46,583 nucleotides of DNA. Origin: Clostridia bacterium (GTDB lineage Bacteria > Bacillota > Clostridia > DUPQ01). A program made the translations under genes and the position numbers. Location of the stretch: contig JAUUZV010000002.1 in the NCBI GenBank assembly GCA_030592085.1, positions 1 through 46,583 on the forward strand, read 5' to 3'. Of the stretch, positions 5,084 through 44,751 are shown piece by piece. The notes beneath the pieces were generated by a model that was not told where the DNA came from, made no database searches, and saw only the letters and a program-made list of their open reading frames with translations. How positions within the stretch are numbered: the first letter of the stretch is position 1; each line of letters opens with the position of its first letter.

Positions 5084-5112
5084 AAGTCTCTCCTATCGAT
5101 ATAATATATTAG

Positions 5113-5141: not shown

Positions 5142-5222
5142 TGAACAGCTGTTACATTTTGTCAAAAAGAAGTAATAATTTCTCTTAATACTCTTATATA
5201 TACTATAAAATATATATAATTT

Positions 5223-6572: not shown

Positions 6573-6658
6573 AAAATCCTCTTTTATTTATTATTTTTCT
6601 TTATTCTACAATTTTATAAATTATTATTCAATAGATTTATAAGTAGCTAGTAAGAAAA

Positions 6659-8188: not shown

Positions 8189-8202
8189 TTTTTAGTATCT
8201 CC

Positions 8203-21655: not shown

Positions 21656-21909
21656 AAAGTTTCTCCCTCTTAGTGATTTTATCTTAGGTAACATACAAAT
21701 TATATCTCTATTTTACCAAATTTTCACATGTTTTGCTTATTTTTCGAACATTTCACTGAAGCATACAATAAAGTGATGTAATAACGGAATTAATCTTAAC
21801 AATATACTCATTGTACTTAAATATATTAATATTGTAATGAATTATATTAATTTATCATTAACTATGTTATAATAGTTCTGAGTTTATATTAAAGAGGGAA
21901 GTGTAAAAA

Positions 21910-29986: not shown

Positions 29987-30206
29987 TATTTACTCCCTTC
30001 TTTTGCTAATTTTAATATTTTTTACATGGAAAACTCATTTAAACTTCTACATTAATTTTCACAAAAAATATCCCTATAACTGATGTAATAAGGATATCAT
30101 TGTTATTATTTTTATGTGTTAATAAATCGCGAACGTTTTATTAACATTCTGTGAACATTACTGACAGCCTCCCACCTACTAGATGGGTGACTTCTTGTAG
30201 ATTATT

Positions 30207-31406
30207 TTAAAAACACTTTGAAATGCGTTCTAATGTTTCGTCAATATCTTTTTCTTTATGTGAGTAGTTCACATAAGAAACATTATATAAAGACACCCCA
30301 TTAGCATATGCTTGTCTAAAAAATTCTTGTAAAAGAGATTGATCTTTAGTAACAAAAATAGCACATGGGGGAAAGCCTTTTACACGAATATCATAGTTTT
30401 TCTCTTCAAACAAACGGTTTAAAGCACCAAACAATTTTTCTCCCATTTCCCACAAATGATTTATTACAGGTTCCTTTTTATATGTTTTAATTACCTGCTT
30501 ACATGCAGCTAGAGATAGAGCTTCTCCGCCATAAGTTGATGAAATTGTAGCTCCCTTTGTAACAAATTTCATAATATCTTTTTTGCCACAAAAACAAGAT
30601 AACGGCATACCATTTGCAATTCCTTTTGCATAAACAGCTAAATCAGGAATAACATTAAAGTATTCAGACACTCCTCCTAAAGCTATTCTGAAACCTGTAA
30701 CAATTTCATCAAAAACTAATACACTTTTGTTATTTTTTGTTATCTCTCTTAAAAATGGATAGAAGGTTTGTCCTCTTTCCATTTCCTCATAATCAGCTGC
30801 AACTACAACAGCCGCTATATCACCTTTATATGTTTCATATAATTGTTTCACAGTTTTCTCATCATTCCATTTAACTGTATGATGTAATTGACTAAGTTCT
30901 TTTGTAATTCCAAGAGGAACTCCTGTTGATATATCTCTTGGATTTAGTTTTGCTCCTTCACCTAAGGTGTTAATCCATCCATTATAACCAATCTGTATTA
31001 TATGTTTTTTACTAGTATATGCCCTTGCTAGTTTAATACATGCAGCTAGCGCTTCTCCTCCTGTTTTTAAAAAGCGAACTTTCTCTGCACAGGGTATAAT
31101 TTTAGTAAGCATTTTTGCAACTTCTGCTTCTAAAGGGGTTGGTTGTCCAAACACAATTCCTTTATTTAACTGTCTTTTAATAGCACTAGTTACTTCTTTG
31201 TAATTATAACCTAGTGTCACTGGGCCAAGTCCATTTCTAAAATCAATATACTCTTTATTATTAGCATCAATTACTCTACAACCTTCACCTTTAACAATAA
31301 CCGACGGTTCTTCTGGTTGTAATGTGGCTCGTTTTGAACCTGTAGATGAACCACCTGCCACATATTTTTCTAACTGATTAAACCAATAATTATTATCTTT
31401 TTTCAT
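30207..31406 (-). CDS. Class-III PLP aminotransferase (glutamate-1-semialdehyde aminomutase-like)
   Basis: 399 aa. LVFDEIVTGFR and the Lys context AVYAKGIANGMP are typical of class-III aminotransferases. Starts immediately after the upstream stop. Confidence 0.8.
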   Translation of the reverse strand: MKKDNNYWFNQLEKYVAGGSSTGSKRATLQPEEPSVIVKGEGCRVIDANNKEYIDFRNGLGPVTLGYNYKEVTSAIKRQLNKGIVFGQPTPLEAEVAKMLTKIIPCAEKVRFLKTGGEALAACIKLARAYTSKKHIIQIGYNGWINTLGEGAKLNPRDISTGVPLGITKELSQLHHTVKWNDEKTVKQLYETYKGDIAAVVVAADYEEMERGQTFYPFLREITKNNKSVLVFDEIVTGFRIALGGVSEYFNVIPDLAVYAKGIANGMPLSCFCGKKDIMKFVTKGATISSTYGGEALSLAACKQVIKTYKKEPVINHLWEMGEKLFGALNRLFEEKNYDIRVKGFPPCAIFVTKDQSLLQEFFRQAYANGVSLYNVSYVNYSHKEKDIDETLERISKCF

Positions 31407-32366
31407 TTATAATCCCTCTATCTCTTCTAAAAATACTTCTCTATTGCCTTCATTTTTACTTTTAATTCCTGCAATTATAATTTTCATCAACTCAATTGTT
31501 TCACTAAACTCAAAAGGCATTATACCTGTTCGCAAATAACTTATAAACGCTTCTAGTTGATTTCTAAAAGAGAAATATGATCCCCCAGATTCAGCAAAAG
31601 TAAACCCCTTGTCTCCTCCTAGTAATACTTTTCCAAAACATCCTCTCATATCATAAATAGCTGCAATAACTACATCAATATCTTTTTCATGTTTAAGATG
31701 AACAATATCACGTTTATCGTTTCCTGAATTTCTTACTGAGATAAAACCTGGTTTTACAATTGTATATATTCCTTCTAAAGCATGTATTCCATAACGTTCC
31801 CAAGTTTTTGCAGTTGTAATTGTAGCGTATTTTAAATTACCATATTGGGTTGTATTTTCTCTTAGATCTTTTAATCCTGGATTATATCTCATGGAACTAG
31901 AGGATATAAACTTTTTACCTTCCTTGTGCCATTTTATAAATTGCTGTAAGTCTTTTTCATTATCACACATTGGTTTATCAATAAATATAGGTATGTTTGC
32001 TTCCATAAATGGTCTCACCCTATTAACATGTTCCCATCCTTTATCTGTAGGAATTACAACTGCATCTACCTTTCCTATAACATCTTCAGGATTTTTTACC
32101 ACATTAGGAATAAGAGATGCTTTTGCTACATGTTTTGCCTGGTCATAATCATCACACCAAATATGTGTTACGTTCACATTAGGAATAGTTAGTGTTTCTT
32201 TTGGTTGTTCACCTAAATACTGAGGTATAACTGGATAACCACATTCTTTCATTTCCTTTTCGTCATAACCATTACAAATGGCACTCCAAGAATATGGATG
32301 TCCATTTTCAGCAACCATTCCTATCATGGCTAGATTTATTTGCTTTTTTTGAATAATCGGTTTCAT
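31407..32366 (-). CDS. Gfo/Idh/MocA-like oxidoreductase (atypical dinucleotide-binding N-terminus)
   Basis: 319 aa. INLAMIGMVAENGHPYSW...VDAVVIPTDKGWEH...IPIFIDKPM follows the Gfo/Idh/MocA N-domain layout, but the glycine motif is non-canonical. AAGGAG RBS. Confidence 0.6.
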   Translation of the reverse strand: MKPIIQKKQINLAMIGMVAENGHPYSWSAICNGYDEKEMKECGYPVIPQYLGEQPKETLTIPNVNVTHIWCDDYDQAKHVAKASLIPNVVKNPEDVIGKVDAVVIPTDKGWEHVNRVRPFMEANIPIFIDKPMCDNEKDLQQFIKWHKEGKKFISSSSMRYNPGLKDLRENTTQYGNLKYATITTAKTWERYGIHALEGIYTIVKPGFISVRNSGNDKRDIVHLKHEKDIDVVIAAIYDMRGCFGKVLLGGDKGFTFAESGGSYFSFRNQLEAFISYLRTGIMPFEFSETIELMKIIIAGIKSKNEGNREVFLEEIEGL

Positions 32367-32469
32367 CTTTTGCTCCTTCTTATGATAATAGTAAATATAA
32401 CCAAACTGTATTTAAGTAATTATTTTCTTTTATATCCAGTTTTTTTGTTGATTGCATTCAACAATCTTC

Positions 32470-33258
32470 TTATTTAGCTGTTAATCCACCATCAACTGGT
32501 ATATTTGTTCCCGTGATATAACTTGATGCATCACTTGCTAGAAAAACTAAAATACCTTTCATATCATCATCATTTGCTAATCGCTTTAAAAATGTTTTTT
32601 TACAGTAATTTTCTTTAAATTCTTTTGGTTGCTGACTAGTTTCATATCCACCTGGGTGAATACAATTTACTCTAACACCTTTTGGACCATAGAATCCTGC
32701 AAAAAACTTAGTTAAATTTGCAATTCCTCCTTTGTTATAGTAATAAGCAGCTCCTCCTGTTTTTAATAACCCTGTTCCTTCATATAACCAATCATCATAG
32801 CCCACTAAACCATAAATTGATCCAATATTAATAATTGAACCAGTTCCTTGAAGTGCCATTTGATCAGCAAATTCACGATGCATTAATATCAATCCTGTTC
32901 CATTCACTTTAAAATCATTGTCTAATTTTTCAGCAGTTAATTCAGCAATATGTCCGCTTCTAGCTACAGAATTATTAATTAGTATATCAATTTTTCCACT
33001 TCGTTTCACTATTTCATTTTTTAATTTAATAATAGATTCATGATTACTTTGATCATATTCCAATGGAATAACAGTTAAGTTTTCTTCTTTTTTTAACTTA
33101 TCTGTAAACTCTGTTAATTTTTCTAAATTTCTAGATGCTGTATATGTTATAGCTCCTGCTTGTGCTAAAGCAATAACCATCTGTCTTCCATATAACCCTG
33201 ACCCACCTGTAACTAATGCCACTTTCCCAGCCAACGAAAATCTATCTAATATATTCAT
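32470..33258 (-). CDS. Short-chain dehydrogenase/reductase (SDR)
   Basis: 262 aa. VTGGSGLYG cofactor motif, NNSV, and a C-terminal ASSYITGTNIPVDGG tail. Confidence 0.85.
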   Translation of the reverse strand: MNILDRFSLAGKVALVTGGSGLYGRQMVIALAQAGAITYTASRNLEKLTEFTDKLKKEENLTVIPLEYDQSNHESIIKLKNEIVKRSGKIDILINNSVARSGHIAELTAEKLDNDFKVNGTGLILMHREFADQMALQGTGSIINIGSIYGLVGYDDWLYEGTGLLKTGGAAYYYNKGGIANLTKFFAGFYGPKGVRVNCIHPGGYETSQQPKEFKENYCKKTFLKRLANDDDMKGILVFLASDASSYITGTNIPVDGGLTAK

Positions 33259-33270
33259 TTTAATCCCTCA

Positions 33271-34179
33271 CTATCCTTGTTTATCCCAAAGCATTGGGAA
33301 AAATATCCATTCAGGTACTCCACTTAATAATTCTTCAATCTCTTTCATTTTATCATTTGAAAAAGGAGTTTTGTTAAGTAATGTTATATTTTCTTTTACT
33401 TGTGTTATATTGTCACATCCAATTACCAATGAATTTACATAATTAAGACTATTAACATACCTTAAAGCTAATTCAGCAACGCTCATATTCTCTTTGTCTG
33501 CAAAGGAATTAACCTTATCTAAGTAAGGTTTTATTTCTTTTAAATTACCAGTTAATTTATTTGGTTCTTTAAAGAAAATCCCTTGTAAATAAACACTTCT
33601 AACATATATGGTTTTATTTAGTAATTTCTTTTTTTTATCAGCTTGTGATGTAATACGTTGATCTAACATATTTACAGGTAGTTGATATGATGAATATAAC
33701 TCATTTGACAACATGTCTTTTATTTCATCATATGTATATCCACTTGCACCTGCTTTTTTAATCAGTTTCTCATCTAGTAATTTTTTAAATGCTTTATCAA
33801 TTTCACGACCATATATTTTATATTCTTTAGCATCATGCATTAATAAGGTATCAACATTTTTAACTCCTAAATTTAATAGTGATTTCTCTAACGATTGATA
33901 AATATTCTTTTCAACATCATTTTTTGTAATGTTTCCTAATTTAAATTTTGTCACTATTTGAGTAATATCTTTTGCTTGGCTGTTTTGAAAAAAGTATTGA
34001 CCAATAACTCTTTCGCTATCTCCGTATCCTGCGGCTGTATCTAACGTAGTAATTTTATTAGCAAGGGCCATATCTAAAATATCAAATGCTTTTTCTAGCG
34101 AAGGTTTTCCATCTTTATTGTTAATACCATAATTTAATCCTAACTGTACAGTACCTAATGTCATTTTGTAAGGTTTCAT
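33271..34179 (-). CDS. Aldo/keto reductase
   Basis: 302 aa. LGTVQLGLNYG...LDTAAGYGDSE...LLMHD are typical AKR motifs. Confidence 0.8.
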   Translation of the reverse strand: MKPYKMTLGTVQLGLNYGINNKDGKPSLEKAFDILDMALANKITTLDTAAGYGDSERVIGQYFFQNSQAKDITQIVTKFKLGNITKNDVEKNIYQSLEKSLLNLGVKNVDTLLMHDAKEYKIYGREIDKAFKKLLDEKLIKKAGASGYTYDEIKDMLSNELYSSYQLPVNMLDQRITSQADKKKKLLNKTIYVRSVYLQGIFFKEPNKLTGNLKEIKPYLDKVNSFADKENMSVAELALRYVNSLNYVNSLVIGCDNITQVKENITLLNKTPFSNDKMKEIEELLSGVPEWIFFPMLWDKQG

Positions 34180-35039
34180 AATGTTACCTCATTTATTCTA
34201 TTCATGAATTCTTTGATTTCTTCTTTTGCTTCATTCGATATATTTATTGAATAATCTTCATGATATCGCCCAGGCATTCCTAATAATTCCATGGCATATG
34301 AAAAGCTGACCAAGACACCATGTTTAATAAATATATTTCTTAAATCAAGAATATTTTGTAAGTGAAATGATATGTTTTCGCCTTGATACATTTTTTGTGT
34401 ATTTAAGGGAGTACAGCAAAACATACCATCTAAGTTTTTCTTAATACCTCCTTGTAATGCTATATCAAATGTATCTAAGCCACTATATAGTAAATCAAAA
34501 TCTGCTTGTTTGTATGGATTTCTCATTATTGAAGATATTAAATTCATATTACCTGATTTAATTCCTTTTATATTGTCATGTTTCATTAAAGTAAGGACTG
34601 TGTCTACTGTCATTGGAGATTGTGTTACTCCTGGTAAGTCATATAAATATAAAGGTTTAATTGATTGATTTGCAATTGCTTTATAAAATGAAATAATCTG
34701 TGTTTGATTAACCATATAATAAAATGGTGTGGTTGCCACAATACCATCAAAATTTAAATGATCTATTGCGTTTACTCTATCCATAACCCTACCAATAGAA
34801 TTATCCATTACTCCAATCATTAAAGGAACTCTTTTTTTATTTGCTTTTATACTCGCTTTAGCGATTGAAACATAATCCTTTTCTCTTACTCCTATCATAT
34901 TACCCATTGAGCCCATGCAAAGTAGACCAGACGCTCCAGCTTGAATTTGCTGATTTATCTGTGTTACAAAACTTTTCTCTATTAACTGTCCATTACTATC
35001 AAGTGGGGTTCCTAAAGCTGTGTAAAATCCATTATTCAT
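34176..35039 (-). CDS. DapA/NanA-family class-I (Schiff-base) aldolase/lyase, divergent
   Basis: ALGTPLDSNGQLIE N-terminus, LYLYDLPG (Tyr) and NIKGIKSGN (Lys). The family GxxGE motif reads GSMGN here. I prefer the ATG at 35039 (GAGGT 8 nt upstream) over the TTG at 35060. Confidence 0.7.
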   Translation of the reverse strand: MNNGFYTALGTPLDSNGQLIEKSFVTQINQQIQAGASGLLCMGSMGNMIGVREKDYVSIAKASIKANKKRVPLMIGVMDNSIGRVMDRVNAIDHLNFDGIVATTPFYYMVNQTQIISFYKAIANQSIKPLYLYDLPGVTQSPMTVDTVLTLMKHDNIKGIKSGNMNLISSIMRNPYKQADFDLLYSGLDTFDIALQGGIKKNLDGMFCCTPLNTQKMYQGENISFHLQNILDLRNIFIKHGVLVSFSYAMELLGMPGRYHEDYSINISNEAKEEIKEFMNRINEVTL

Positions 35040-35040
35040 A

Positions 35041-36135
35041 TTAATATACCTCGTTTTCAAAAAGTGTTTTTGTGGTTATGGAAATATTTCCTAAATTATT
35101 AATAATTATTTGTTTAGTAAATTGTAATTCTAAAAGACTTTTCACTCCTAAAATATATTGCGTAAATCCTTGTATCGTAAAGCGAATAGCTGCTTTTTTT
35201 GTAGTGATTATACATTGATTGTTTCTTTTAATATATGATATACCATCAATATTAATAACTATATTTTCTGGGAAATCAGATATAACTAACATTCTTTTTA
35301 CATCTAGTATTTTTGACATTTTATCTTGTATTAATTTAATACTCTCACAATCACTTTTTATGTTATCAATAATTAAAGAATCAGGAGGTGTAATTATAAC
35401 TATATTTTCCTTATTTTTATATACATTATATATATAGGCAAGTAATTCCTCTAATATAGTAAAATCATTATAGACTATTTCACTAATAAATATATCATTT
35501 TTCTTTTCTTTATATATAACATATCCACTATCTTTAATTGCCTTTATTTTATATCCTTTTTCGTAAAAAGATTGTACATATGATGCCATTAATTTATTGT
35601 CTCGTTGGCAATATAGATTATACCGTTTTGAAAAGTTCCTTCGTGCTTTTACAAGTTTCTTTGTTAATTCAACTGTACCATCGTCATTTACTACTTTCTT
35701 TTCAAGGTAACTAAGTTGTTTCATTTGATATGTTAACTCGTAGAAAGACAAGGTATTACTATATCCAAATTTTTCATAAAAGCTTGTTAAAAAGGGCGCT
35801 AGTGATGACAGAACATAACCTCTTTTATTCATTATAGTAAGTGCATGGTTTATTAGTCTTTTAGAATATCCTTTGTTACGGTATAAAGGATTAGTAGCTA
35901 CTGAACCAATTCCCCCTGCCATAATTAATGTATTGTTAAAAGTTAACTCCATTGGTTTAATCCAGATTACTGATATTAGAAATTCTTTAGAAAACATGCC
36001 ATACCAATTTATCTCATCATAATAATATTTCATGGCAAAATCTTCCTGCTTTTTAGTTAAGATAGGAAAACATTCTCTTCGAAGATCATAAAGCTGATTA
36101 TAATCAGTTTTTTTTAGTAATCGTAATTCGTCCAT
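35041..36135 (-). CDS. Eis-like three-domain GNAT N-acetyltransferase
   Basis: 364 aa. Acetyl-CoA motif VATNPLYRNKGYSKRLINHAL. The length and long C-terminal extension fit the Eis (GNAT-GNAT-SCP2) architecture. Confidence 0.6.
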   Translation of the reverse strand: MDELRLLKKTDYNQLYDLRRECFPILTKKQEDFAMKYYYDEINWYGMFSKEFLISVIWIKPMELTFNNTLIMAGGIGSVATNPLYRNKGYSKRLINHALTIMNKRGYVLSSLAPFLTSFYEKFGYSNTLSFYELTYQMKQLSYLEKKVVNDDGTVELTKKLVKARRNFSKRYNLYCQRDNKLMASYVQSFYEKGYKIKAIKDSGYVIYKEKKNDIFISEIVYNDFTILEELLAYIYNVYKNKENIVIITPPDSLIIDNIKSDCESIKLIQDKMSKILDVKRMLVISDFPENIVINIDGISYIKRNNQCIITTKKAAIRFTIQGFTQYILGVKSLLELQFTKQIIINNLGNISITTKTLFENEVY

Positions 36136-36136
36136 C

Positions 36137-37180
36137 TTATAACTTCACATACTCATTATTCTTTGATGAAGCATATGCTGCTTCAATAACACGTTGTATT
36201 TGAATTCCATCTGTTGCTGGAACTTCAACTTTTGTGTCTTTTAAAATCGATAGGCTAAAACTATCAATTTCTTTGGCATACATATTTCCAAATTCAACAT
36301 CAATATGTCTAGTCCTATTTTCACTTCTATCTTGTGTGGCATCATATTCTTTTGTATCATCTGAAAAAGTAACTTCAAGTGAACCTGTTTCAATTTGTGA
36401 AATAGTTCCTTCTGCTAATAAACTTCCTTTAGTTCCATAAAATTCTAATCTACATTTTGCTGCATCATCTGGAATATTAAAATTTGATTCCACATGACAT
36501 ATTGCACCATTTTCAAGTTCAACTAAAAAGGCACCTGAGTCTTCTACTTCATAATCAAAGGTCAATGTATTTGTAAGACCAGCTACTCGTTTACTTTTAT
36601 AACCTGTAATATATTGTATTAAATCTAAACAATGAACACCCATATCCATTAAAGCTCCACCACCTGATGTATTATAACTCTGTCTCCAATTTCCTGGCAT
36701 ATCAGGATACCAACATGTTAACTGTGCCCTTGCAGATACGATGTTTCCAATTTTTCCCTCTTGTACAAGCTGTTTCATTTTTTGATGATATGCGTGAAAC
36801 CTCATCATAAAACCTGTTGCTAGTTTCACGTTTTTTAATTGGCAATAATTAATTACTTCTATTCCTTCTTTTACTGTAAGACAAATAGGTTTTTCAAGTA
36901 ATATGTGTTTTCTAGCATTTGCAGCTTTTATTGCCTGTTCTTTATGATAAATAACTGGAGATGCAATATATACTGCATCAATTTCTTTATCGGCTAATAA
37001 GTCATCAATATTATCAAATGCTTTTTTTGCATTAAATTGTTCTTTAATCTCATTAGCTAAGGTCATATTAACTTCCATAACACTAATTAATTCAGCATTC
37101 TCTGATAATAAGATACCTGGAATAGTTCGCCTTCTAGCAATACCACCTGCTCCAATAACTCCCCATTTTACTTTATCCAT
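36137..37180 (-). CDS. Gfo/Idh/MocA-family NAD(P)-dependent oxidoreductase
   Basis: KWGVIGAGGIARRR Rossmann motif and HILLEKPI (EKP motif). I prefer the ATG at 37180 (GGAGAG 8 nt upstream) over 37195. Confidence 0.85.
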   Translation of the reverse strand: MDKVKWGVIGAGGIARRRTIPGILLSENAELISVMEVNMTLANEIKEQFNAKKAFDNIDDLLADKEIDAVYIASPVIYHKEQAIKAANARKHILLEKPICLTVKEGIEVINYCQLKNVKLATGFMMRFHAYHQKMKQLVQEGKIGNIVSARAQLTCWYPDMPGNWRQSYNTSGGGALMDMGVHCLDLIQYITGYKSKRVAGLTNTLTFDYEVEDSGAFLVELENGAICHVESNFNIPDDAAKCRLEFYGTKGSLLAEGTISQIETGSLEVTFSDDTKEYDATQDRSENRTRHIDVEFGNMYAKEIDSFSLSILKDTKVEVPATDGIQIQRVIEAAYASSKNNEYVKL

Positions 37181-38255
37181 GATAAATCTCTCCATTTTCT
37201 ATAACGTGATAAACTTCACCTTTTTCACTCATTATCACAATATTAGCTTTTTTTTCTTTTTTTATGCTTCCAAGTCTTTCGTCTACTCCTAATAATCTAG
37301 CTGGATTTAGTGTTGCCATTTTAACTGCCTGTGGCCATGTAATACCTGTGTGTTTAACCATGTTACATACAGCTAAATTAACACTCATCATAGACCCTGA
37401 AAGTTGTCCTAATTCATTATAGTTTAAATCTCCATCGCTATAATCATCTTTAGTACCAATAGCATCAGATATTAGAATAACTTTATCTTCACCCATTGCT
37501 CTAAAAGTTACTTTTAAAAGCAAGTCAGATACATGAACCCCTTTATTATCTGCAATAAGCTCTGCATATAAATTCTCATCAGCAAGCACGGCCTCTGCTG
37601 TACCTGTTTCATGAATATCCTTACAAGCTCTCTCTTTTGGTCCCATACCATCATATAAGTGACAAATTAATTGTATGTCTTTTAATTGCTCCTTAGTGCA
37701 ACCTGTATGGCCAGCACATGGAATCACTTCTGGTTTTGTTAATAAGAAATCAATAAATTCTCTGGAATTATCAATATCAGGTGAAATCATCCAAATTTTT
37801 ATTTTTCCTTGACCAGCTTTGTATATAGCTTCATATTCATCTTTATCTACACTTCTTACATTTCTTGTATCTGCTCCATATTCTTTATTAACAAAAGGTC
37901 CTTCGCAATTAATTCCTAGAATTGCATCATCTTTTACTTTAACAATCTTTTTTACTCCCTCTTCAAACAAATCTCTTGGCATGTTATATCCAATTGTTGG
38001 ACAAATACCTAAAGTTCCTCGTTTTTTATGACCTTTTAATGCAGTAATAGGATCATAAGCAAATAATTGTCCTTGCCCACCATGACAATGAATATCAATA
38101 AATCCTGGAGTAACTAATTGTCCTTTTGCATCAATTACTTCACCTTTAAAAACTTTATCTTTTGAAATTGTTTGAATCAATCCATTCTTTAAGTATAAAT
38201 TACCAACAATTATTTTATCTTCTAATACAATTCTGCCATTAATTACATTCAGCAT
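37173..38255 (-). CDS. N-acetylglucosamine-6-phosphate deacetylase (NagA)-like amidohydrolase
   Basis: All NagA landmarks are present: [34 protein letters not shown]. Confidence 0.8.
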
Positions 38256-39189
38256 GGAGTGGCCCCGCTAATTCTTTTAAGAAAAACAATTTTCCTGGAA
38301 GTGTTGGCATAAAGGTTGAAGGTATCCACATATCGGGGCCATATCTTAACGTCATCCAAAAAGACATACCCTGCCACATCATTCCTCTTCCTAGTGTGCC
38401 ATCACATCCACCAATTATTTTGTCAGATTGCAAAAATAATCCTGGTCCAATTGTATTTGCTCTACAAGGAACTAGTGATGTTCTGCTTTTAAAACTTGTA
38501 ATAGCATTTTGCTCAATCGTTAAAGGATGTAACATTGCACCAATTCTATGTGTTTGTTTTTTCCACTCTTCCACACTGTCAAACTCACTTGCAAATTGAG
38601 GTTCCCAGAAAGCAATATGGCACATTCTTCCAATCCCAAATACTGTCACCAATTTAGCACCTTCATTTTTAAGCTTGCTTATTTTCTCAGCATAAGTAGG
38701 CAAATTATCTTTTGTTGCAAAATTTCGATGACTAACTGGAACTGTTAAATCTCCAAGTGGTCCATAAAAAGCATCAATCATTGCATTTTGAAAAGAGGCT
38801 GGATCATCTGATTCTAATGTATTTCCATCACTATCAGACCATTCATCCATGTTAAATCCATATACGTGTTTAGCATCAACTTGCCATTCTGTTAGAAAAT
38901 AGACAGCCCATTTGTACATACCCATGGGTCCAACTGGTAGAATCATTGCTAGTTTTTGATTATTCTCTCCAGTTGCTTTTATCTCCATTGCAATTTCATG
39001 ACCCATCATCATGTCAAAATCATGAATAGACTCACACATTACTGGTGTGAATTCATCATTCCAAAAAGATTGTCTTTCTAAGACATTTGCAGGATCGATT
39101 GAACAGCATTTGTCAATTTTTTCAAAGTTCCATCCTTTAGGGTAAAACCCTTCTAGTAATGAACCTTTCACAGTATTAATAAAATTCAT
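38239..39189 (-). CDS. Divergent glucosamine-6-phosphate deaminase/isomerase (NagB)-superfamily protein
   Basis: [20 protein letters not shown] and [13 protein letters not shown] parallel the NagB motifs (LPTGxTP, NLDEY, GIGxNGHIAFNEP). I prefer the ATG at 39189 (GGAG 8 nt upstream); the track start at 39267 runs into the upstream gene. Confidence 0.65.
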
Positions 39190-39202
39190 ATATTTTACTC
39201 CT

Positions 39203-39907
39203 TTATGGTAATAATCTCTTGGTTGTTCCTCGCGGCCAAGTATGACAACTTCTAAATGCTTCAGCATATGCTACATTGCATTGTAACCCTCTAAACTTAG
39301 ATACTGTTTTTGCAAAATCTAAAAAATTTATTTCATCATGATCGCTCATCCATTTTATCTGGCTCTCATGTTTGTCAAGAGCTTTAAGTTTTTTGTCAAT
39401 GTACTTTGTTATATCAACATACTCTTCTGGTTGAAAATTTATTCCTGCTAATGTGTCCATATAATATATAGGGACAATGCCAGTAGCTTTTGATTGTGTT
39501 TCATAATGGGGTACAGAGACAGAAAAAGAAGCATCAAACACTATTTGACTAGTTTGACGATGGTCTTCCATATAATCATCAGGATCATGAGTAATAATTA
39601 AATCAGGATTAACCTGTCTAATCACCTCAATCACTTTTAAAACCGTATCTTCATTAGAAGCTTTAACAAGTAAATCAGGTACATCGATTGAAAAAACTTT
39701 AATAACACCTAAAACCTTGGCAGCTTCATTTGCTTCTTTTTCTCTTATTACTCGTAATTCATCTGGTTTAATAATTGCATGGCCTTTATCACCGTTTGCA
39801 ATGTTACACATATATACTTCATGCCCTTCATCTTGATATCTAGCTAATGTACCACCACAACCAATTTCAAGATCATCAGGATGACAGCCAATGGCTAATA
39901 TTTTCAT
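39203..39907 (-). CDS. PIG-L/LmbE-family N-acetyl-amino-sugar deacetylase
   Basis: [20 protein letters not shown] and [12 protein letters not shown] are metal-binding signatures of the PIG-L family. Confidence 0.85.
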
Positions 39908-39919
39908 TTTCTCACCTTC

Positions 39920-41191
39920 TTATACTAAATGTTTCTGTATAACTTTTATAAAAGCATCAATACAACGTTGGATGTGAGTTTCTTCCCATGATGGATGTAA
40001 AAATAAATTAATTGTTCTATCTCTTAATGAATTTGCAACATCACAATGTACTTCGTCATATTGTACACTTTTCTTATCAGTGTATTCACGTGATTTAAAT
40101 GGGAATTTGTGTTGACCAAATCCATTTAACTCTTTGTACGCTTTTTCCATATATGCTTCTGGCCATTGGATACCATAACATGGTATTCCCATTCCTTGAA
40201 GTTCTTTAATGATTTCTGTAGCATCTACATCTAAAATATCAGTAGCTAAAATCATTGGATACCACCAATAAGCATTCTTTCTACTTTCTGTATTTACAGG
40301 TAATTTACTAATTCCTCTTTGGTTTTTAAAAGCTTTGTCATACATGTCGGCATATTTGAATCGTCTAGCTAAATTCCATTTATCAAATCTTTTTAATTCA
40401 TTTAAACCAATAATTGACTGAATTTCAGTCATCCTATAATTAAATCCCACTCTATTATGTATATAAGGTAGTTTTTCTTCTAATGCTAACATGTTCATTC
40501 TCTCTTTTACATCATAACCATGGTCTCTAAACGAACGACATTCCCAAGCTAAGTCCTCATCATTTGTTACAACCATTCCACCTTCTCCTCCAGTGGTAAA
40601 ATGTTTGCTTTGACAAAAACTAAAACAACCAGCATCTCCTATAACACCCGCTTTAACTCCATTATATTCTCCTCCAAAACATTGAGCACAATCTTCAATT
40701 ACTTTTAAATCATTTTCTCTAGCAAATTCCATAACTGGTCCCATGTCTGTCATAACTCCATATAAATGAACCACAATAATAGCTTTAGTTCTCTTTGTTA
40801 GTAGTCCTTCTAGTAATGATGGATCTAAAGTATGATCTTCTGTTACATCACAAAAAACAGGAATTGCGCCTGCTTGAACAATTGCAAATGATGAAGCAAT
40901 AAATGAATAAGATGGCACAATAACCTCGTCTCCTGGTCCTATATTCATACTAGCTAGGGCAATATGTAAAGCTGCGGTTCCATTTGTACACGACATAGCA
41001 TATTTAGCGCCGTTCCATTTTGCCCATTCTTTTTCAAACTCCATACCCTTTGGTCCTGTCCAATAATTAACTTTTCCATTTAGTATTGGTTCTTGTATGT
41101 CTTTTGCAGTTTCGCTTGCAAATTGTGGCCACATTGGGAATCCTAATTCCTCAATACCTGCCCCATTCATAACTTTCTTTTTTTCTCCCAT
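39920..41191 (-). CDS. DegT/DnrJ/EryC1/StrS-family PLP sugar aminotransferase
   Basis: 423 aa. CTNGTAALHIAL, DEVIVPSYSF, and the PLP-Lys context FSFCQSKHFTTGGEGG. Confidence 0.85.
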   Translation of the reverse strand: MGEKKKVMNGAGIEELGFPMWPQFASETAKDIQEPILNGKVNYWTGPKGMEFEKEWAKWNGAKYAMSCTNGTAALHIALASMNIGPGDEVIVPSYSFIASSFAIVQAGAIPVFCDVTEDHTLDPSLLEGLLTKRTKAIIVVHLYGVMTDMGPVMEFARENDLKVIEDCAQCFGGEYNGVKAGVIGDAGCFSFCQSKHFTTGGEGGMVVTNDEDLAWECRSFRDHGYDVKERMNMLALEEKLPYIHNRVGFNYRMTEIQSIIGLNELKRFDKWNLARRFKYADMYDKAFKNQRGISKLPVNTESRKNAYWWYPMILATDILDVDATEIIKELQGMGIPCYGIQWPEAYMEKAYKELNGFGQHKFPFKSREYTDKKSVQYDEVHCDVANSLRDRTINLFLHPSWEETHIQRCIDAFIKVIQKHLV

Positions 41192-41195
41192 GTTT

Positions 41196-41645
41196 TTATC
41201 CTCCCTTGATTTCTTTTTTAGTAACGACTAATCGGCACACTGCTTTATGGCAGTTTGATAAATCAATCATATATGTAAACCCTAAAGGTTCAAGTACTCT
41301 TCTATATAATAAATCACAATGTTCACAGTAATCTTCATATGGACTCATGTGTGATAATTGGTTAAGCATTCCTTTTGACGGACAATGATGCATGTTTATT
41401 TCAATCGTTTCACTTTCCTCATCTAAAATCATTGTAAAATCAGCAGCTTCTTCATTTAATGCTTTTTCCCAATAATCATAACATCCTCTTATTCCTTTAT
41501 CTTCAACTTGTTTTTTTAAACTATTAGTTAAGTACAAGTCTGATAGGGTTTCCCAAAACTTAACAACTTCGCGTTTACCACCTTTTTTATTTAAATATTT
41601 AAATCCCTCTGAGTAAGCTGGGATAAACTGAGTACATGAAATCAT
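41196..41645 (-). CDS. Small Cys-rich protein (possibly ATC-hydrolase-like fold), paralog of upstream ORF
   Basis: 149 aa with 7 Cys, including HHCPSKG, CEHC and CHKAVC. ATGA start/stop overlap with the upstream ORF. The family assignment is from memory of the PF14196 pattern only. Confidence 0.6.
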   Translation of the reverse strand: MISCTQFIPAYSEGFKYLNKKGGKREVVKFWETLSDLYLTNSLKKQVEDKGIRGCYDYWEKALNEEAADFTMILDEESETIEINMHHCPSKGMLNQLSHMSPYEDYCEHCDLLYRRVLEPLGFTYMIDLSNCHKAVCRLVVTKKEIKGG

Positions 41646-42112
41646 CTATTATCCCTCCTAGTAAATACATGGCTACTTTTCCCTGAGGATTTATCAAATG
41701 ATTTTAACTCATAGATAAAAGGTGTTTTTTCACAAATGCTTTGATAAACAGTTCTATATGTTTCAATATATACAGTGGAAGGGATTTTTCCTTTACTGAG
41801 TATATATGTCATACCTGGACAGCTATTTATTGAAAATTCTAATTTATCTACTGTTGCACTTATTTTTATTTCCCATTTTTCCTTTTTATACAATTCTTTA
41901 ATATATGTTTCCAGAGGCTGTATATTCCCCTTTTTTAATTGGTCAATTAATGGTTTGTGATAAACTTTTGAAAAATCATTTAAATATTCTATGACACCTT
42001 CATTTCCATAGTTCTCTAAAATATAGTCAAGTAACATATTCATTGATAAATGAAAATCTTTGTGATAATATTCATTGTCAGCTGCTCTGACATCAAGAAT
42101 CTTTAAAGCCAT
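41642..42112 (-). CDS. Small protein, Cys-depleted paralog of the downstream ORF
   Basis: 156 aa. Colinear with the next ORF: helical N-half, then E.KISATVDKLEFSINSCPGMTY against ETIEINMHHCPSKGM. It lacks the CxxC and Cx4C motifs. Confidence 0.6.
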   Translation of the reverse strand: MALKILDVRAADNEYYHKDFHLSMNMLLDYILENYGNEGVIEYLNDFSKVYHKPLIDQLKKGNIQPLETYIKELYKKEKWEIKISATVDKLEFSINSCPGMTYILSKGKIPSTVYIETYRTVYQSICEKTPFIYELKSFDKSSGKSSHVFTRRDNR

Positions 42113-42114
42113 TA

Positions 42115-43443
42115 TTATTCTCCAATAATTTTATCTTTAATATAATCTACTAAGAAATCTCCTGCTTTATATATTAATTGAGAAGACCAGGCAGTCCGTA
42201 CTTCATATCCGCCTTGTGAATATGCTTCTTCTTTTGGAATATATCCTGACTGTGAATTAGCCAATCCAATAATCATGGTATTATTTTGTTTGGTTTCTTC
42301 CTTAACTGCTAATCCAAACTCCACATAAACTTCTCCAGGAAAAGTAACAAAAGCGAAATTATCCATAAACATTCCTTGTATCACTGTCTCGTACGTTGTT
42401 TCTGTTCTCTTGTTCATAGCTAAAACCATTTTTGCATATGTTTTATCAGGAATACCATCAAACATATCTTCTTCTTTTTCTTTATCTCTAATCATTACCA
42501 TATTTGCCCATTTTATTTCTTCTTCTTTAATAGGTCGTAATGGGAGGTGTAATATTTTTGAAACAAATTTCACATTTCCTGTTACATTGATTGCTTTATC
42601 AATGTTTTCTCTAGCATATATTCCTAATTTTTTCCCAATTCTTTTAGTTTCTCTAAAATCACGCCACTGGTCTGGTTTTTCAAAATTTAAATGATTAATA
42701 TTTCCTTCTGCTCCATTTGCAAAAAGAACAACCAATTGATTCCCATAAAATTCTTTTAATTGTTTATCAAGACTATCTATATAATCTCTAGAAATTAGCC
42801 AATCTAATCCAACTAATATTGCTGGATGTAAAGTGAAGTTAACTAAAACTCCAATTAGTTGTTTCTTATCATTCCATACACTTAAAGTAATCAACTCAGG
42901 ATCTATTGGTCCAGTAGTTCCAATAATGTCATCAATAGCAAATTTTTCAAAATTCATAACAATATCACCATTTTTTCTTATTAACCTTCTGTTGAAACTT
43001 AAATCAGTAACTAATGTTTTCCCTGTTTTTAAAGTGACTTCACTAAATTCTTGTTGATTTAATTTGACTATCTCCTTTAAAACTTTTTTTTCAATTTTAT
43101 CTAAATATATATCAATAGCTTTTTCAATGCCATGATACATTCTCATACAAGTATCAGGTCCTGAATGAGTGTGAGTTGCGAACATTATAATGTTTTCAAA
43201 AGGAATATCTGTGTTATTGGAAATAACTTTTTTCATTGATGTACATGTATCATATTTTAAACCAACCACATCATATCCTAACAAACATATTTTTTTAGTA
43301 CCATCGTTTAAAATCATAACATTACAATATATGTCGTCATGAACTCCACGCACTTTATTATCGCTTCTTACATTTCCTCCCATAGGTGTTCCAATGGACG
43401 GTGTGATTTTTACTTTTCCCATAATTGCTTTCATTTTTTCCAC
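42115..43443 (-). CDS. Neutral/alkaline ceramidase N-terminal-domain-like amidohydrolase (cytoplasmic, truncated form)
   Basis: 442 aa. GKVKITPSIGTPMGG, then DDIYCNVMIL, then the FATHTHSGPD motif (ceramidase HTHxGP Zn site). No signal peptide and no C-terminal tail domain. Confidence 0.6.
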   Translation of the reverse strand: MEKMKAIMGKVKITPSIGTPMGGNVRSDNKVRGVHDDIYCNVMILNDGTKKICLLGYDVVGLKYDTCTSMKKVISNNTDIPFENIIMFATHTHSGPDTCMRMYHGIEKAIDIYLDKIEKKVLKEIVKLNQQEFSEVTLKTGKTLVTDLSFNRRLIRKNGDIVMNFEKFAIDDIIGTTGPIDPELITLSVWNDKKQLIGVLVNFTLHPAILVGLDWLISRDYIDSLDKQLKEFYGNQLVVLFANGAEGNINHLNFEKPDQWRDFRETKRIGKKLGIYARENIDKAINVTGNVKFVSKILHLPLRPIKEEEIKWANMVMIRDKEKEEDMFDGIPDKTYAKMVLAMNKRTETTYETVIQGMFMDNFAFVTFPGEVYVEFGLAVKEETKQNNTMIIGLANSQSGYIPKEEAYSQGGYEVRTAWSSQLIYKAGDFLVDYIKDKIIGE

Positions 43444-43444
43444 C

Positions 43445-44602
43445 TCATCTAATTAATATTCTATCAAGTAAGTATCTAGCCCCACCAAGTGTTACAGCGT
43501 TTTCTTCCACCTGTGATAGCAAAATTGGTAAATTCTTGTTTTGCCCTAAAGCTATATCTTTAAATATTTTTATAACCTCTGCTAGATACTTTTGTCCAAA
43601 TATAGTGATTTGTCCTCCAATAATAACTACTTCTGGATTTAATAAGTTTACTGCATTATTAATTCCATAAGCTAAGTATTTAGCATTCTTATTAACCACT
43701 ACAGTTACATCCATATATAGTTCATCATATCTGTTTTGTATTTCTTGTAAGGAATACTTTGGTAATTTTTTAGTAATAGTTGGAAAACTAGCTACTGTTT
43801 CTAAACAACCTTTTGCCCCGCACTTACAACGAGGTCCATTTATATCAACTGAAATATGTCCAAATTCTCCAGCTAAGTTGTGGGATCCACGATAAATATT
43901 TCTATTAATAATAATGCCAGCTCCAATGCCGGTATGTACATCAATATATAATAAGTTTTTAATATTTCTTATTTCTTTAACAAAAATAATCTCTGCATAA
44001 GCTGCTAGTGATGATTCATTTACTAACTCAATTTGACACAATGGATAAGCTTTTACTAATTGCTCATAAAACAAGTTGCTTTCTGTTAAAGGAATAATTG
44101 TTGAAGAAAGCACTTTCTTTTGTTGCATATCAATTAACCCCGGTGCTCCAATGGATATTCCTAATAATTTCTCTTTTGCAATATTTTCTTTTTTTAATAA
44201 TAGTTTACTGGTTGTAACTAATGAATTTCCCAATTCACCATAAACTACTAGTGGGTGAAATTGTCCACTTATTAATTGGCATTTTAAATTATATAGTCCT
44301 AAATAATATCCGTGCTGTTGTAAGTCAGCACAAATAAAGTAAGCGCCTTCTTCATTAACATCTAATAAAATGGGGCGACGTCCACTGCTTTTAACAATTT
44401 TTATTCCTATTTCTTGTACTAACCCTTTTATAAGAAGTTCATCAGTTAATGATGAAATTGTTGTGGGACTTAATTTTGTAACATTAGCAATCTGTGCTCT
44501 AGAAATACCGTCATGTTGATTAATCAACTTAAATACTAGTTTACTATTAGCTTGCTTAATTGTTTGTTGTGAAGAAAGCTTTTCTTCTTGTTTATTAAAC
44601 AT
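43445..44602 (-). CDS. ROK-family transcriptional regulator (NagC/XylR-like)
   Basis: N-terminal wHTH ISRAQIANVTKLSPTTISSLTDELLIKGLV. ROK Zn motif GHISVD...CKCGAKGCLE. First gene of the operon. Confidence 0.85.
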   Translation of the reverse strand: MFNKQEEKLSSQQTIKQANSKLVFKLINQHDGISRAQIANVTKLSPTTISSLTDELLIKGLVQEIGIKIVKSSGRRPILLDVNEEGAYFICADLQQHGYYLGLYNLKCQLISGQFHPLVVYGELGNSLVTTSKLLLKKENIAKEKLLGISIGAPGLIDMQQKKVLSSTIIPLTESNLFYEQLVKAYPLCQIELVNESSLAAYAEIIFVKEIRNIKNLLYIDVHTGIGAGIIINRNIYRGSHNLAGEFGHISVDINGPRCKCGAKGCLETVASFPTITKKLPKYSLQEIQNRYDELYMDVTVVVNKNAKYLAYGINNAVNLLNPEVVIIGGQITIFGQKYLAEVIKIFKDIALGQNKNLPILLSQVEENAVTLGGARYLLDRILIR

Positions 44603-44751
44603 AATTAATTGCTCCAGTGACTTTATTAATTAAATTGTAACATAAATAAAAAAAAACACAACAATTTCTTTCTATTAAATATCTATTTTAAATGGGGATA
44701 AAAAATAATATTAATAATTTCTTTTACTAGCAGAAAACAACGTTAAACTAC

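Follow-up and report, generated by a model that had tools for sequence, protein, structure and literature searches.

The question raised by this locus is which substrate is processed by a set of enzymes that resembles several amino-sugar pathways and coincides with none of them. The set is encoded by 15 consecutive open reading frames (ORFs), all on the minus strand, running from position 44602 to position 30207 of a 46,583-nt stretch of DNA from a Clostridia bacterium (contig JAUUZV010000002.1 of assembly GCA_030592085.1), which is referred to here as the window. In the order of transcription, the genes encode a ROK-family regulator, a ceramidase-like amidase (CerL), two proteins of about 150 amino acids (smA and smB), a DegT-type aminotransferase, a PIG-L-type deacetylase, a NagB-like and a NagA-like enzyme, a Gfo/Idh/MocA oxidoreductase (Gfo1), a GNAT acetyltransferase, a DHDPS-type aldolase, an aldo/keto reductase (AKR), a short-chain dehydrogenase/reductase (SDR), a second Gfo-like oxidoreductase (Gfo2) and a class-III aminotransferase. 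It is likely that these genes form an uncharacterised operon for the catabolism of an amino sugar or amino sugar acid. We give a probability of roughly 0.5 to a fuller reading, in which the operon is repressed by the ROK protein and serves to dismantle an amino sugar acid that is imported and carries several N-acyl groups. In this reading, a nonulosonic acid of the pseudaminic/legionaminic (Pse/Leg) type is the leading candidate, and a similar acidic amino sugar of microbial surface glycans is the alternative. The narrower claim that the substrate is a nonulosonic acid is a possibility on which we remain tentative. The predicted amino-sugar catabolic operon has new components, including three families without a Pfam domain (the NagB-like protein, smA and smB).

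That the 15 genes belong together is suggested by their spacing and their boundaries. The coordinates and family labels proposed by a first-pass annotation of the window were borne out by the ORF listing and by Pfam and NCBIfam profile searches, as was its tally of three amidases, two transaminases, four oxidoreductases and one lyase. Its junctions of -17 to +13 nt are found when start codons are placed as in relatives (Met27 of the longest ORF, at 39189, for the NagB-like gene; about 37180, some five codons into the ORF, for Gfo1; 35039 for the aldolase gene), and not when the longest ORFs are taken, which gives overlaps as large as 65 nt. Because the NagB-like family is uniformly 316 amino acids long, Met27 should be the true start of that gene. 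The 103-nt gap between the SDR and Gfo2 genes is real, and at this place the close relatives L003 and L005 (related loci are cited by such numbers), which are 93-99% identical, carry a gene for a 469-residue AAA_14/DUF4143 ATPase (16807-18216 in L003 and 7315-8724 in L005); the gap could reflect either a clean loss in the window or an insertion in these relatives. Consensus scans for promoters and terminators gave match counts no better than those in shuffled sequences and overlooked both hairpins described here, and the boundaries were therefore judged by RNA folding and conservation. Upstream, a hairpin 3' of the gene for an M32 carboxypeptidase (dG -22.8 kcal/mol, z -6.9) is followed by a candidate promoter region that contains TTAATA-18-TAAAAT at 44714-44685, found with a match count no higher than in shuffles, an extended -10-like TGTTACAAT at 44642-44634 and a GGAG ribosome-binding site at 44615-44612. 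The last ~60 nt 5' of the ROK ATG are 100% identical in L003, with a 61-nt indel further upstream. Another hairpin, terminator-like, lies at the other end. Since the junctions are at most 13 nt or overlapping and hairpins occur only at both ends, these features indicate one transcription unit with a conserved promoter region at its head and a terminator-like hairpin at its tail. No Rfam family was detected in 25000-46583, and the GC content along the window (~30%, 0.28-0.34 throughout) does not indicate a foreign island.

The gene order ROK-CerL-smA-smB-DegT-PIGL-NagBL-NagAL-Gfo1-(GNAT)-DHDPS-AKR-SDR-Gfo2, in which GNAT is optional, is kept in other Clostridia at 47-85% amino acid identity (L086, L087, L093, L095 and L106, and also L008), and the ROK gene is likewise the first one in L086, L087, L093 and L106. 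L003-L005 are near-identical metagenome contigs; the nearest relatives are metagenome-assembled genomes (MAGs) of uncultured Clostridia/Clostridiales, among them L087 (GCA_023145435.1, 84% identical), and L086 is a 2.45-Mb contig with 47-80% identity. The full operon was not found in any cultured organism. The first-pass annotation had allowed for a chance neighbourhood of several small operons, which would then share no pathway, and this explanation could appeal to the separate occurrence of parts of the operon in most genomes and to the 103-nt gap, which is filled by an additional gene in a relative. It fails on the co-conservation of the genes and we consider it extremely unlikely, as an order of 13-14 genes persists at 47-80% protein identity (L086, L095, L106), partial combinations recur in Bacteroidota, Kiritimatiellia and Paenibacillus, and the junctions are tight, with hairpins at the two ends only.

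The enzyme set is, however, not a single invention. Three modules make up this mosaic; they are met again in various phyla, and every one of them has a far wider distribution than the complete set of 15 genes. Module 1 consists of the PIG-L and NagB-like genes, which are adjacent in 69 of 85 loci, usually as a two-gene cassette behind a divergent AraC regulator. Additional genes are frequently inserted, namely PfkB with a class II aldolase, or Gfo with a xylose-isomerase-like TIM barrel (XylTIM). Cultured strains of Paenibacillus, Virgibacillus and Cohnella carry module 1, examples being Paenibacillus spongiae (L001; CP091430.1, about 4.466-4.487 Mb), Virgibacillus sp. W0181 (L020) and Cohnella sp. 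WQ 127256 (L035). Module 2 is the smA/smB pair, usually beside a pyruvate aldolase, and module 3 is DegT plus Gfo1, usually with a ROK regulator, which adjoins module 1 in ~10 loci. Two of the 15 genes are clade-specific accessories. The GNAT gene is present only in L003-L005, L087 and L093 and is missing in L086, L095, L106 and L008. The class-III aminotransferase gene is loosely attached: it was not found after Gfo2 in L086, L095 and L106, and it occurs beside smA/smB in L088 (53% identity) and in a fusion with Amidohydro_2 in L092 and L174.

The contexts of these modules point to catabolism. Bacteroidota versions sit in SusC/D loci, that is, polysaccharide utilization loci (PULs), and related loci contain AraC, ROK or GntR regulators and AA_permease, MFS or SSS transporters. 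In the PUL of L091, a CerL-smA fusion, smB, the DHDPS-type aldolase and the AKR are accompanied by SusC/D, three BNR sialidase-like genes, a GDSL esterase, an MFS transporter, a second DHDPS-family gene whose best model is N-acetylneuraminate lyase and a gene whose best model is N-acylglucosamine 2-epimerase. L092 and L174 likewise have BNR sialidase-like genes close to the module, and L110, L112, L166 and L168 contain BNR-like ORFs. It is because of the PULs, the regulators, the uptake transporters and the sialidase-like and nan-like contexts that catabolism of an N-acylated amino sugar acid is preferred here, and the last two contexts favour a sialic-acid-like acidic amino sugar. Among the substrates first proposed, the nonulosonic acid has gained most, and the aminocyclitol glycoside is left without positive support, as Pfam revealed none of the hallmarks of aminocyclitol clusters (cyclitol synthase, glycosyltransferase, exporter/resistance gene) among the 15 operon proteins, in the flanks or at orthologous loci.

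The same evidence bears on a biosynthetic role, in which the Gfo/DegT pair, the PIG-L protein and the GNAT would produce an aminocyclitol or amino-sugar natural product or a surface sugar, after the model of the 2-deoxystreptamine, kanosamine or Pse/Leg pathways. For such a role speak the relationships of the DegT protein, which matches scyllo-inosose aminotransferases (E~1e-53) and has PseC and LegC-family as its best NCBIfam models, both under cutoff; the best NCBIfam model of Gfo1, which is IolG, inositol 2-dehydrogenase (168.9 bits, cutoff 355); and the presence of an Eis-like GNAT. The DegT protein is 71-86% identical in relatives across phyla. Its closest solved structures are those of nucleotide-sugar and scyllo-inosose aminotransferases, including 7l7x, perosamine synthases and QdtB, and NtdA, BtrR-type and WbpE structures are also among the matches. 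For Gfo1, 1,5-anhydrofructose reductase and inositol dehydrogenase are the closest in the PDB. Nevertheless, biosynthesis is highly unlikely: cyclitol synthases (2-DOI/inositol-phosphate), nucleotidyltransferases, NeuB-type synthases, glycosyltransferases, flippases and exporters are absent from the 15 proteins and from the relatives, the contexts are catabolic, the GNAT is missing from most versions, and the equivalog scores are all far under cutoff.

If the operon is catabolic, the nature of its substrate has to be read from the enzymes. The lyase, described earlier as DapA/NanA-like, scores 104.6 bits against the dapA model (cutoff 206.15) and 62-84 bits against NanA models (cutoffs 281-382), and YagE is among its closer solved relatives. 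In an alignment that included E. coli NanA and DapA, the Schiff-base Lys (NanA Lys165) and the Tyr (Tyr137) are invariant, and GSMG[NKRQ] stands in place of G[ST]TGE. Identity as a NanA-type lyase was rejected on the active-site residues: Thr48 is not kept, Glu192 is replaced by Thr/Ile/Ser and Ser208 by Met, so that Asp191 is the only one of the sugar-binding residues Asp191, Glu192 and Ser208 with an equivalent; the position of DapA Arg138 is Val. The enzyme represents a subfamily of its own within the DHDPS family.

The small proteins smA and smB usually lie beside pyruvate aldolases. Among 49 metagenome and genome loci, each of at least 5 kb, the two are paired in 47, and their commonest immediate neighbour is a pyruvate aldolase of the DHDPS type (at least two subfamilies) or the HpcH/HpaI type, typically in the order aldolase-smA-smB with the pair directly downstream of the aldolase. 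The earlier suggestion that they are paralogs is confirmed, as remote paralogy, by profile-profile comparison (hhalign, 94.7%, E=5.6e-8, 129 columns), despite a pairwise identity of 22% (E=0.018). Neither has a Pfam match at E<=10, nor smA an NCBIfam match. The smA family comprises 196 clusters at 50% identity, including ~313-residue forms; proteins of ~304-333 residues with an smA-like domain in the C-terminal half (P0392, P0394, P0411, P0420, P0426, P0452 and P0483, some of which match twice) are probably fusions of the tandem smB/smA type; if so, they would speak for smA and smB acting as a heterodimer. For smB, 1,740 homologs were found, with no Pfam domain recorded among them and all named ones called 'hypothetical protein', and identity remains at 60-70% as far as Omnitrophota, Armatimonadota and Kiritimatiellia. 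Its AlphaFold2 (AF2) model (predicted local distance difference test score, pLDDT, 90.5) had 0 Foldseek matches at E<=0.001 and weak ones (E 4e-3 to 6e-2, TM score 0.5-0.57) to the TRAPP Bet3 family, BcsD, the PoxR sensor domain and H-NOX, proteins which we take to be ligand-binding scaffolds that form heterodimers and not enzymes. A role of the pair as NanQ/YhcH-like sialic-acid accessories was also considered and set aside, as the smB model matches the Bet3/BcsD/PoxR-like group instead, with NanQ/YhcH not compared directly.

CerL corresponds to the N-terminal catalytic domain of neutral ceramidases only, with no match to the C-terminal domain in Pfam and no signal peptide; its nearest PDB entry is the neutral ceramidase 2zws (E=8e-4), 651 homologs were found, and in Bacteroidota smA is fused in frame to its C-terminus, giving ~600-residue proteins. 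Another reading is that the operon degrades a lipid- or amino-acid-linked amine (a sphingoid or ceramide, an N-acyl amine, or a Heyns/Amadori glycated amino acid). CerL would then be a genuine lipid amidase of the ceramidase type, assisted by smA/smB, which would bind lipids in the manner of Bet3. The family membership of CerL, the resemblance of the smB model to Bet3-family and V4R-type small-molecule binders, and the recurrence of AA_permease, PfkB, XylTIM, GntR and peptidase genes in related loci would agree with this; genes of the first four types occur in the frl operon as well. We hold it to be very unlikely all the same, because the fold matches of smB are weak (E>=4e-3), CerL has no signal peptide and is encoded among cytoplasmic sugar enzymes, smA/smB accompany pyruvate aldolases more often than CerL, neither a SIS-type deglycase nor fatty-acid beta-oxidation genes are present, and the SusC/D and sialidase-like context points to glycans.

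No operon protein (0 of 15) reaches an NCBIfam equivalog cutoff, the enzymes of module 1 and the NagA-like protein included. The PIG-L protein (107.3 bits in Pfam, gathering cutoff 28.2) has archaeal diacetylchitobiose deacetylases (E~5e-25) and BshB1 as its nearest PDB entries and scores 132.9 bits against the BshB1 model (cutoff 182.5). The NagA-like protein scores 157.1 bits against TIGR00221 nagA (cutoff 225.65), has the amidohydrolase fold and an HxH motif (IDIHCHGG), and is 53-84% identical in Clostridial versions of the operon. The NagB-like protein matches TIGR00502 with 48.2 bits (cutoff 236.9) and nothing in Pfam at E<=10. Its 6,657 homologs, the best 120 of which share 73-96% identity (Clostridia, Paenibacillus, Bacteroidales), form a family that is 70-85% identical across phyla and occurs in at least 600 species, as counted in a scan of one genome per species, of Bacillota, Bacteroidota, Planctomycetota, Spirochaetota, Chloroflexota, Armatimonadota and Latescibacterota. 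Its AF2 model (pLDDT 76.6, predicted TM score 0.83) is predicted to have the NagB alpha/beta fold: the top 20 PDB matches in Foldseek are all glucosamine-6-phosphate deaminases, with E values down to 4.7e-14 and target-normalised TM scores of 0.64-0.76.

In an HMM alignment with NagB chains from the PDB, the invariant FNMDEW and HIAFWEP of the NagB-like family fall on FNMDEY and HIAFNEP of NagB. Equivalents of Asp72, His143 and Glu148, the catalytic residues of NagB in E. coli numbering, are kept, and Asp141 is replaced by Met. The phosphate loop, in contrast to LPTG(G/S)(T/S)P in NagB, is two residues shorter (LPVG--P), with Val for Thr41, and no alignment was obtained for the C-terminal third, where Arg172 and Lys208 of NagB are located. 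These changes fit, and do not prove, a substrate that is not 6-phosphorylated. The first-pass annotation had been puzzled that NagA-like and NagB-like enzymes, whose relatives use phosphorylated substrates, are encoded with no kinase, phosphotransferase system (PTS), permease, glycoside hydrolase or glycosyltransferase. The Pfam assignments of the operon proteins agree that none of these is encoded within 30207-44602, and a remodelled phosphate loop may be the explanation, as the shortened loop would account for the lack of a kinase or PTS gene.

Module 1 also provides grounds for a variant chitin or GlcNAc (or GalNAc/ManNAc) route, in which the substrate would be a neutral N-acetylhexosamine and not a sugar acid, the PIG-L protein would act as a diacetylchitobiose deacetylase, the NagB-like enzyme would deaminate a hexosamine, phosphorylated or not, and the other genes would provide side-activities for modified hexosamines. 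Apart from the structural relatives of the PIG-L protein and the joint presence of NagA-like and NagB-like enzymes, this explanation is favoured by ~10-15 loci in which PfkB and a class II aldolase join an AraC-PIGL-NagBL cassette, an arrangement with the same logic as the aga pathway, and by a GH18 gene near the module in L092, L173 and L174. However, canonical NagB or NagA genes share a locus with the module 1 cassette in L047, L049, L055 and L060, so that the cassette does not merely duplicate them; the three loci with GH18 are closely related among themselves and have this gene on the opposite strand; and the aldolase, smA/smB, CerL, DegT, the class-III aminotransferase and the sialidase-like and nan-like context are left without explanation. 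A neutral hexosamine is therefore quite unlikely as the substrate of the operon.

The cassette itself deserves mention as a separate observation. In gut and rumen Clostridia MAGs (L017, L018, L032, L067, L071, L076 and others), a divergent AraC gene is followed by PIG-L, PfkB, a class II fructose-/tagatose-bisphosphate aldolase and the NagB-like gene, and this arrangement looks like a complete, uncharacterised route from hexosamine to triose that parallels aga.

For the ROK protein at the head of the operon, the best NCBIfam model is NagC (172.8 bits, cutoff 650), aligned over residues 14-373, with a ROK domain at 134-376, the sequence CKCGAKGCLE (zinc motif CxCGxxGCxE) and weak MarR/HTH_24 matches at residues 25-63, which correspond to an N-terminal winged helix-turn-helix. 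Matches to kinase models begin no earlier than about residue 135. As the NagC alignment spans the full length including the DNA-binding domain, the ROK protein is a regulator and not the missing kinase.

On the basis of these assignments, the following pathway can be proposed for an N-acylated amino sugar acid. The substrate would be taken up by a transporter encoded elsewhere; transporters near the relatives are of the Opp-type ABC class beside the M32 gene in the closest relatives, SusC/D with AA_permease or MFS in Bacteroidota, and SSS in other phyla. Three enzymes would then remove amide-bound acyl groups: CerL together with smA/smB, which may form a heterodimer working with CerL, the PIG-L deacetylase and the NagA-like amidohydrolase. 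The DHDPS-type Schiff-base aldolase would split a 2-keto-3-deoxy acid into pyruvate and an amino-aldose, with the AKR handling the aldehyde. The DegT (and class-III) aminotransferase would turn an amine at a position other than C2 into a ketone, which Gfo1, the SDR or Gfo2 would reduce, and the C2 amine would be removed by the NagB-fold deaminase/isomerase, possibly on a non-6-phosphorylated (e.g. 6-deoxy) sugar, to give a ketose that would enter central metabolism via enzymes encoded elsewhere. The GNAT would be a clade-specific accessory to this sequence. A 5,7-di-N-acyl nonulosonic acid of the Pse/Leg type would explain jointly the presence of a pyruvate lyase and of several N-deacylases; it would also explain the aminotransferase and reductase, needed for the second amine, and a NagB-like enzyme acting on a 6-deoxy hexosamine, which cannot be 6-phosphorylated. 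Gene content, boundaries, modular conservation, the CerL-smA fusion, the NagB-like fold and residues and the aldolase Lys and Tyr are the direct observations on which this proposal is built. A still stronger version, in which this is the first catabolic pathway for 5,7-diamino nonulosonic acids or a similar acidic diamino sugar and employs three undescribed enzyme types, is rather unlikely. The three would be a NagB-fold deaminase acting on a non-6-phosphorylated (6-deoxy) hexosamine, a ceramidase-fold N-deacylase for sugar amides and an smA/smB heterodimer, the latter Bet3/V4R-like, with conserved Cys/His and Asp/His sites, and an obligate partner of pyruvate aldolases.

Several points weigh against the catabolism of a nonulosonic acid or a similar amino sugar acid. 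We infer the order of all steps, and with no transporter, glycosidase or kinase in the window's operon, neither the entry into the pathway nor the exit from it is visible. Pse/Leg sugars have two amines, compared with three amidases and three amine-removing enzymes in the operon. The best models of the aldolase are generic dapA ones, the NanA residues Thr48, Glu192 and Ser208 are not kept, and the aldolase chemistry of the HpcH-type and KdgD-related enzymes would fit amino-uronic or aldaric acids equally well. The argument from the phosphate site is a sequence-based one; in the model, confidence is lowest for the stretch that corresponds to NagB Arg172, and segment 225-240 has a pLDDT below 50. 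Many smA/smB loci are without any amino-sugar genes, and the pair may serve a more general role. Sialidase-like genes are found in a minority of smA/smB loci (~6-7 of ~55), among which L092, L173 and L174 are similar Bacteroidales loci and not independent. Finally, peptidase-type genes (M32, M29, M20, M55 and M19-like) recur nearby, which could point to a glyco-amino-acid substrate.

The coordinates of the operon and of its features are collected in Table 1.

Table 1. Features of the amino-sugar operon in the window, in the order of transcription.
Feature	Position	Strand	Evidence and remarks
Candidate promoter/operator region	44603-44714	-	Consensus scan match, sequence and conservation
ROK-family transcriptional regulator	43445-44602	-	Pfam ROK 7.7e-44
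Ceramidase-like amidase CerL, 442 aa	42115-43443	-	Pfam PF04734 (Ceramidase_alk) 2.2e-11, 43.6 bits, gathering cutoff 32.1
smA, ~150 aa	41642-42112	-	Unannotated family; invariant D12 N13 Y15 H17 D19 F20 H21
smB, ~150 aa	41196-41645	-	Unannotated family; invariant C4 C55 C88 C107 H109 C110 C137
DegT/DnrJ/EryC1-type pyridoxal-phosphate aminotransferase	39920-41191	-	Pfam 2.9e-90
PIG-L/LmbE-family de-N-acetylase	39203-39907	-	Pfam 1e-30
NagB-fold deaminase/isomerase, 316-aa family	38239-39189	-	TIGR00502 E=8.8e-13; no Pfam match
NagA-like amidohydrolase, candidate second or third de-N-acylase	37173-38255	-	Pfam Amidohydro_1 1.3e-18
Gfo/Idh/MocA oxidoreductase 1 (Gfo1)	36137-37195	-	Pfam N- and C-terminal domains
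Eis-like GNAT acetyltransferase	35041-36135	-	Pfam Acetyltransf_9 5.8e-28; weak Eis matches
DHDPS-family class I pyruvate aldolase-type enzyme	34176-35060 (probable start 35039)	-	Pfam 1.7e-31
Aldo/keto reductase (AKR)	33271-34179	-	Pfam 6.9e-35
Short-chain dehydrogenase/reductase (SDR)	32470-33258	-	Pfam adh_short_C2 1.2e-37
Intergenic gap, 103 nt	32367-32469	-	Between SDR and Gfo2 genes; read in sequence
Gfo-like oxidoreductase 2 (Gfo2)	31407-32366	-	Pfam GFO_IDH_MocA 1.7e-8; NAD-binding N-terminal domain only
Class-III (glutamate-1-semialdehyde aminomutase-like) aminotransferase	30207-31406	-	Pfam Aminotran_3 1.3e-44
Terminator-like hairpin with U-run, operon end	30063-30098	-	dG -14.8 kcal/mol, z -4.9, 0/200 shuffles fold as well

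Gfo1 orthologs at least 44% identical adjoin PIG-L/NagB-like genes in 12 loci, the AKR gene follows the DHDPS gene in both Clostridia and Bacteroidota, the SDR is 75-98% identical in Clostridial relatives, and Gfo2 is 70-80% identical in L086, L093, L095 and L106 and 40% in L091. The class-III aminotransferase matches the models for glutamate-1-semialdehyde aminomutase and GntE under cutoff. The fusion protein of L092 (6373-8685) and L174 (6380-8692) is a 770-residue combination of Amidohydro_2 and a class-III aminotransferase that is 29% identical to the last gene of the operon, and it links a step of the amidohydrolase/decarboxylase type to a transamination step. A gene of the URO-D family (uroporphyrinogen decarboxylase/MtaA-like methyltransferase fold), absent from the window, recurs beside the module in Clostridia and Bacteroidota: it comes next after Gfo2 in L086 (20956 to the end) and is found in L092 (539-1642), L173 (8777-9880), L174 (1-1005) and L168, where a URO-D-like ORF lies upstream of smA. 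It may provide a further step of the pathway, a decarboxylation or demethylation.

Other genes of the window were considered as possible parts of the system. A fused ADP-forming acyl-CoA synthetase (26091-28325, minus strand; ATP-grasp_5, CoA_binding_2 and Succ_CoA_lig, 744 residues) was rejected as an operon member, since it is cut off by the terminator-like hairpin and a lipoprotein gene and is not found after Gfo2 in L086. The synthetase gene directly follows the last aminotransferase in L003 and L005, and it may be a loosely linked partner, e.g. for released acetate or acyl groups. The intervening orphan lipoprotein (28400-29986, minus strand, lipobox LLTGC) has weak similarity to large ABC solute-binding proteins of the AlgQ1/AlgQ2 type (E~4e-4); Pfam gave nothing useful at E<=10, no permease genes adjoin it, and it is absent from L003 and L005. 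The MFS transporter, FGGY kinase and UxaE genes at 5.2-10 kb were likewise rejected as the missing parts, as they belong to a separate hexuronate-type group more than 20 kb away. They lie in 2153-10018 (minus strand), which encodes a BcrAD/BadFG-type CoA-enzyme activase with DUF2229 (976 residues), a UxaE tagaturonate epimerase, an FGGY kinase and an MFS transporter, and part of which looks like a hexuronate-type utilisation group unrelated to the operon. Just downstream of the operon region, 22437-26034 (minus strand) encodes an ECF sigma factor (185 residues) and then a 1,016-residue RsgI-like anti-sigma factor that carries an fn3 domain and a faint M90-peptidase-like segment, a pair which we take to be of the type that senses extracellular polysaccharides in cellulolytic clostridia. 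Further away, a HerA-type helicase/ATPase gene (19898-21694, minus strand), whose best NCBIfam model is 'anti-phage-associated helicase HerA' (E=5.9e-84, under cutoff), is convergent with and overlaps a gene for a transglutaminase-like TgpA-type protein (17341-19905, plus strand); a defence system may be located nearby.

Surface glycans of bacteria and archaea, sludge and biofilm matrices commonly contain nonulosonic acids and other N-acylated diamino sugars, and the locus would offer a concrete gene set for the breakdown of these sugars. A 2023 review of sialic-acid use in the gut does not mention Pse or Leg in its text, and a 2021 study of Accumulibacter stated that the role of nonulosonic acids in such matrices had been overlooked and found no enzymes of their catabolism in the proteome (PMC8053191). 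In agreement with the first-pass view that the enzyme set matches no canonical pathway, no description of the cassette or of a catabolic pathway for Pse/Leg was found in openly accessible full-text literature, a search that did not cover subscription-only papers. In thousands of genomes, gut Clostridia MAGs among them, members of the NagB-like family now bear the name 'glucosamine-6-phosphate isomerase' or 'hypothetical protein'; a function for the family would put this right and might show how the sugars of microbial cell surfaces are reused by anaerobes. Should the substrate prove to be an ordinary hexosamine, what remains is a variant nag/aga route with some unexplained accessories.

When the operon is compared with known systems, the nag regulon (NagC, NagA, NagB) is similar in having a ROK/NagC-type regulator, here at the head of the operon, an amidohydrolase of the NagA superfamily and a NagB-fold enzyme. 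However, the operon's proteins are far under the equivalog cutoffs (172.8 vs 650, 157 vs 225.65 and 48 vs 236.9 bits), its NagB-like protein has a shortened phosphate loop and an unaligned C-terminal third, and a kinase or PTS gene is lacking. The nan clusters (E. coli nanATEK-nanQ and the Bacteroides nanLET type) share a DHDPS-family Schiff-base enzyme followed by amino-sugar processing. In contrast to them, the operon has no NanE, NanK or NanT and an aldolase of altered active site, and the extra amidases, the two aminotransferases, smA/smB and the NagB-like enzyme are without counterpart there; sialidases, transporters, and NanE/NanK or AGE epimerase with a lyase are absent from the window's operon and are found around the module only in some Bacteroidota loci (L091, partly L092 and L174). 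The archaeal chitin pathway (Dac) likewise couples a PIG-L deacetylase to a deaminase, which we take to be GlmS-like and not of the NagB fold, but it lacks an aldolase, aminotransferases and CerL, whereas the genes described here are spread through many bacterial phyla.

The aga pathway for GalNAc and GalN consists of a deacetylase, a deaminase/isomerase (AgaS/AgaI), a tagatose-6-phosphate kinase and a class II tagatose-bisphosphate aldolase. The ~10-15 related loci with PIGL-PfkB-class II aldolase-NagBL have the same four activities and the same logic, with a deacetylase of another superfamily (PIG-L instead of amidohydrolase) and no PTS; the window's operon itself is without the kinase and the class II aldolase. 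In the dehydratase-aldolase pairs YagF/YagE and YjhG/YjhH of E. coli, a pyruvate aldolase stands beside a constant partner, as it does beside smA/smB. The partner there is an IlvD/EDD dehydratase, in contrast to two ~150-residue proteins with non-enzyme-like fold resemblance here; an IlvD/EDD gene is present in the Paenibacillus locus L001. The neutral ceramidase of Pseudomonas aeruginosa (2zws) shares with CerL the N-terminal catalytic domain, above the Pfam cutoff, and CerL has an H-x-H motif (THTHSGP) and a C-terminal GY..EEY..GGYE-like segment, both of which we take to resemble ceramidase motifs. CerL, however, has 442 residues compared with 646, lacks the C-terminal domain and the signal peptide, and is tied to sugar enzymes and fused to smA. 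Lastly, the Gfo/DegT pairs of biosynthetic pathways (NtdC/NtdA, BtrR with its dehydrogenase, GnnA/GnnB and WbpB/WbpE) are made up of the same two families, which are adjacent here as well and co-conserved with ROK in ~10 loci. The context of the operon is catabolic and other biosynthetic functions are lacking, in contrast to those pathways, and for this reason the DegT/Gfo reactions probably run in the direction from amine to ketone to alcohol.

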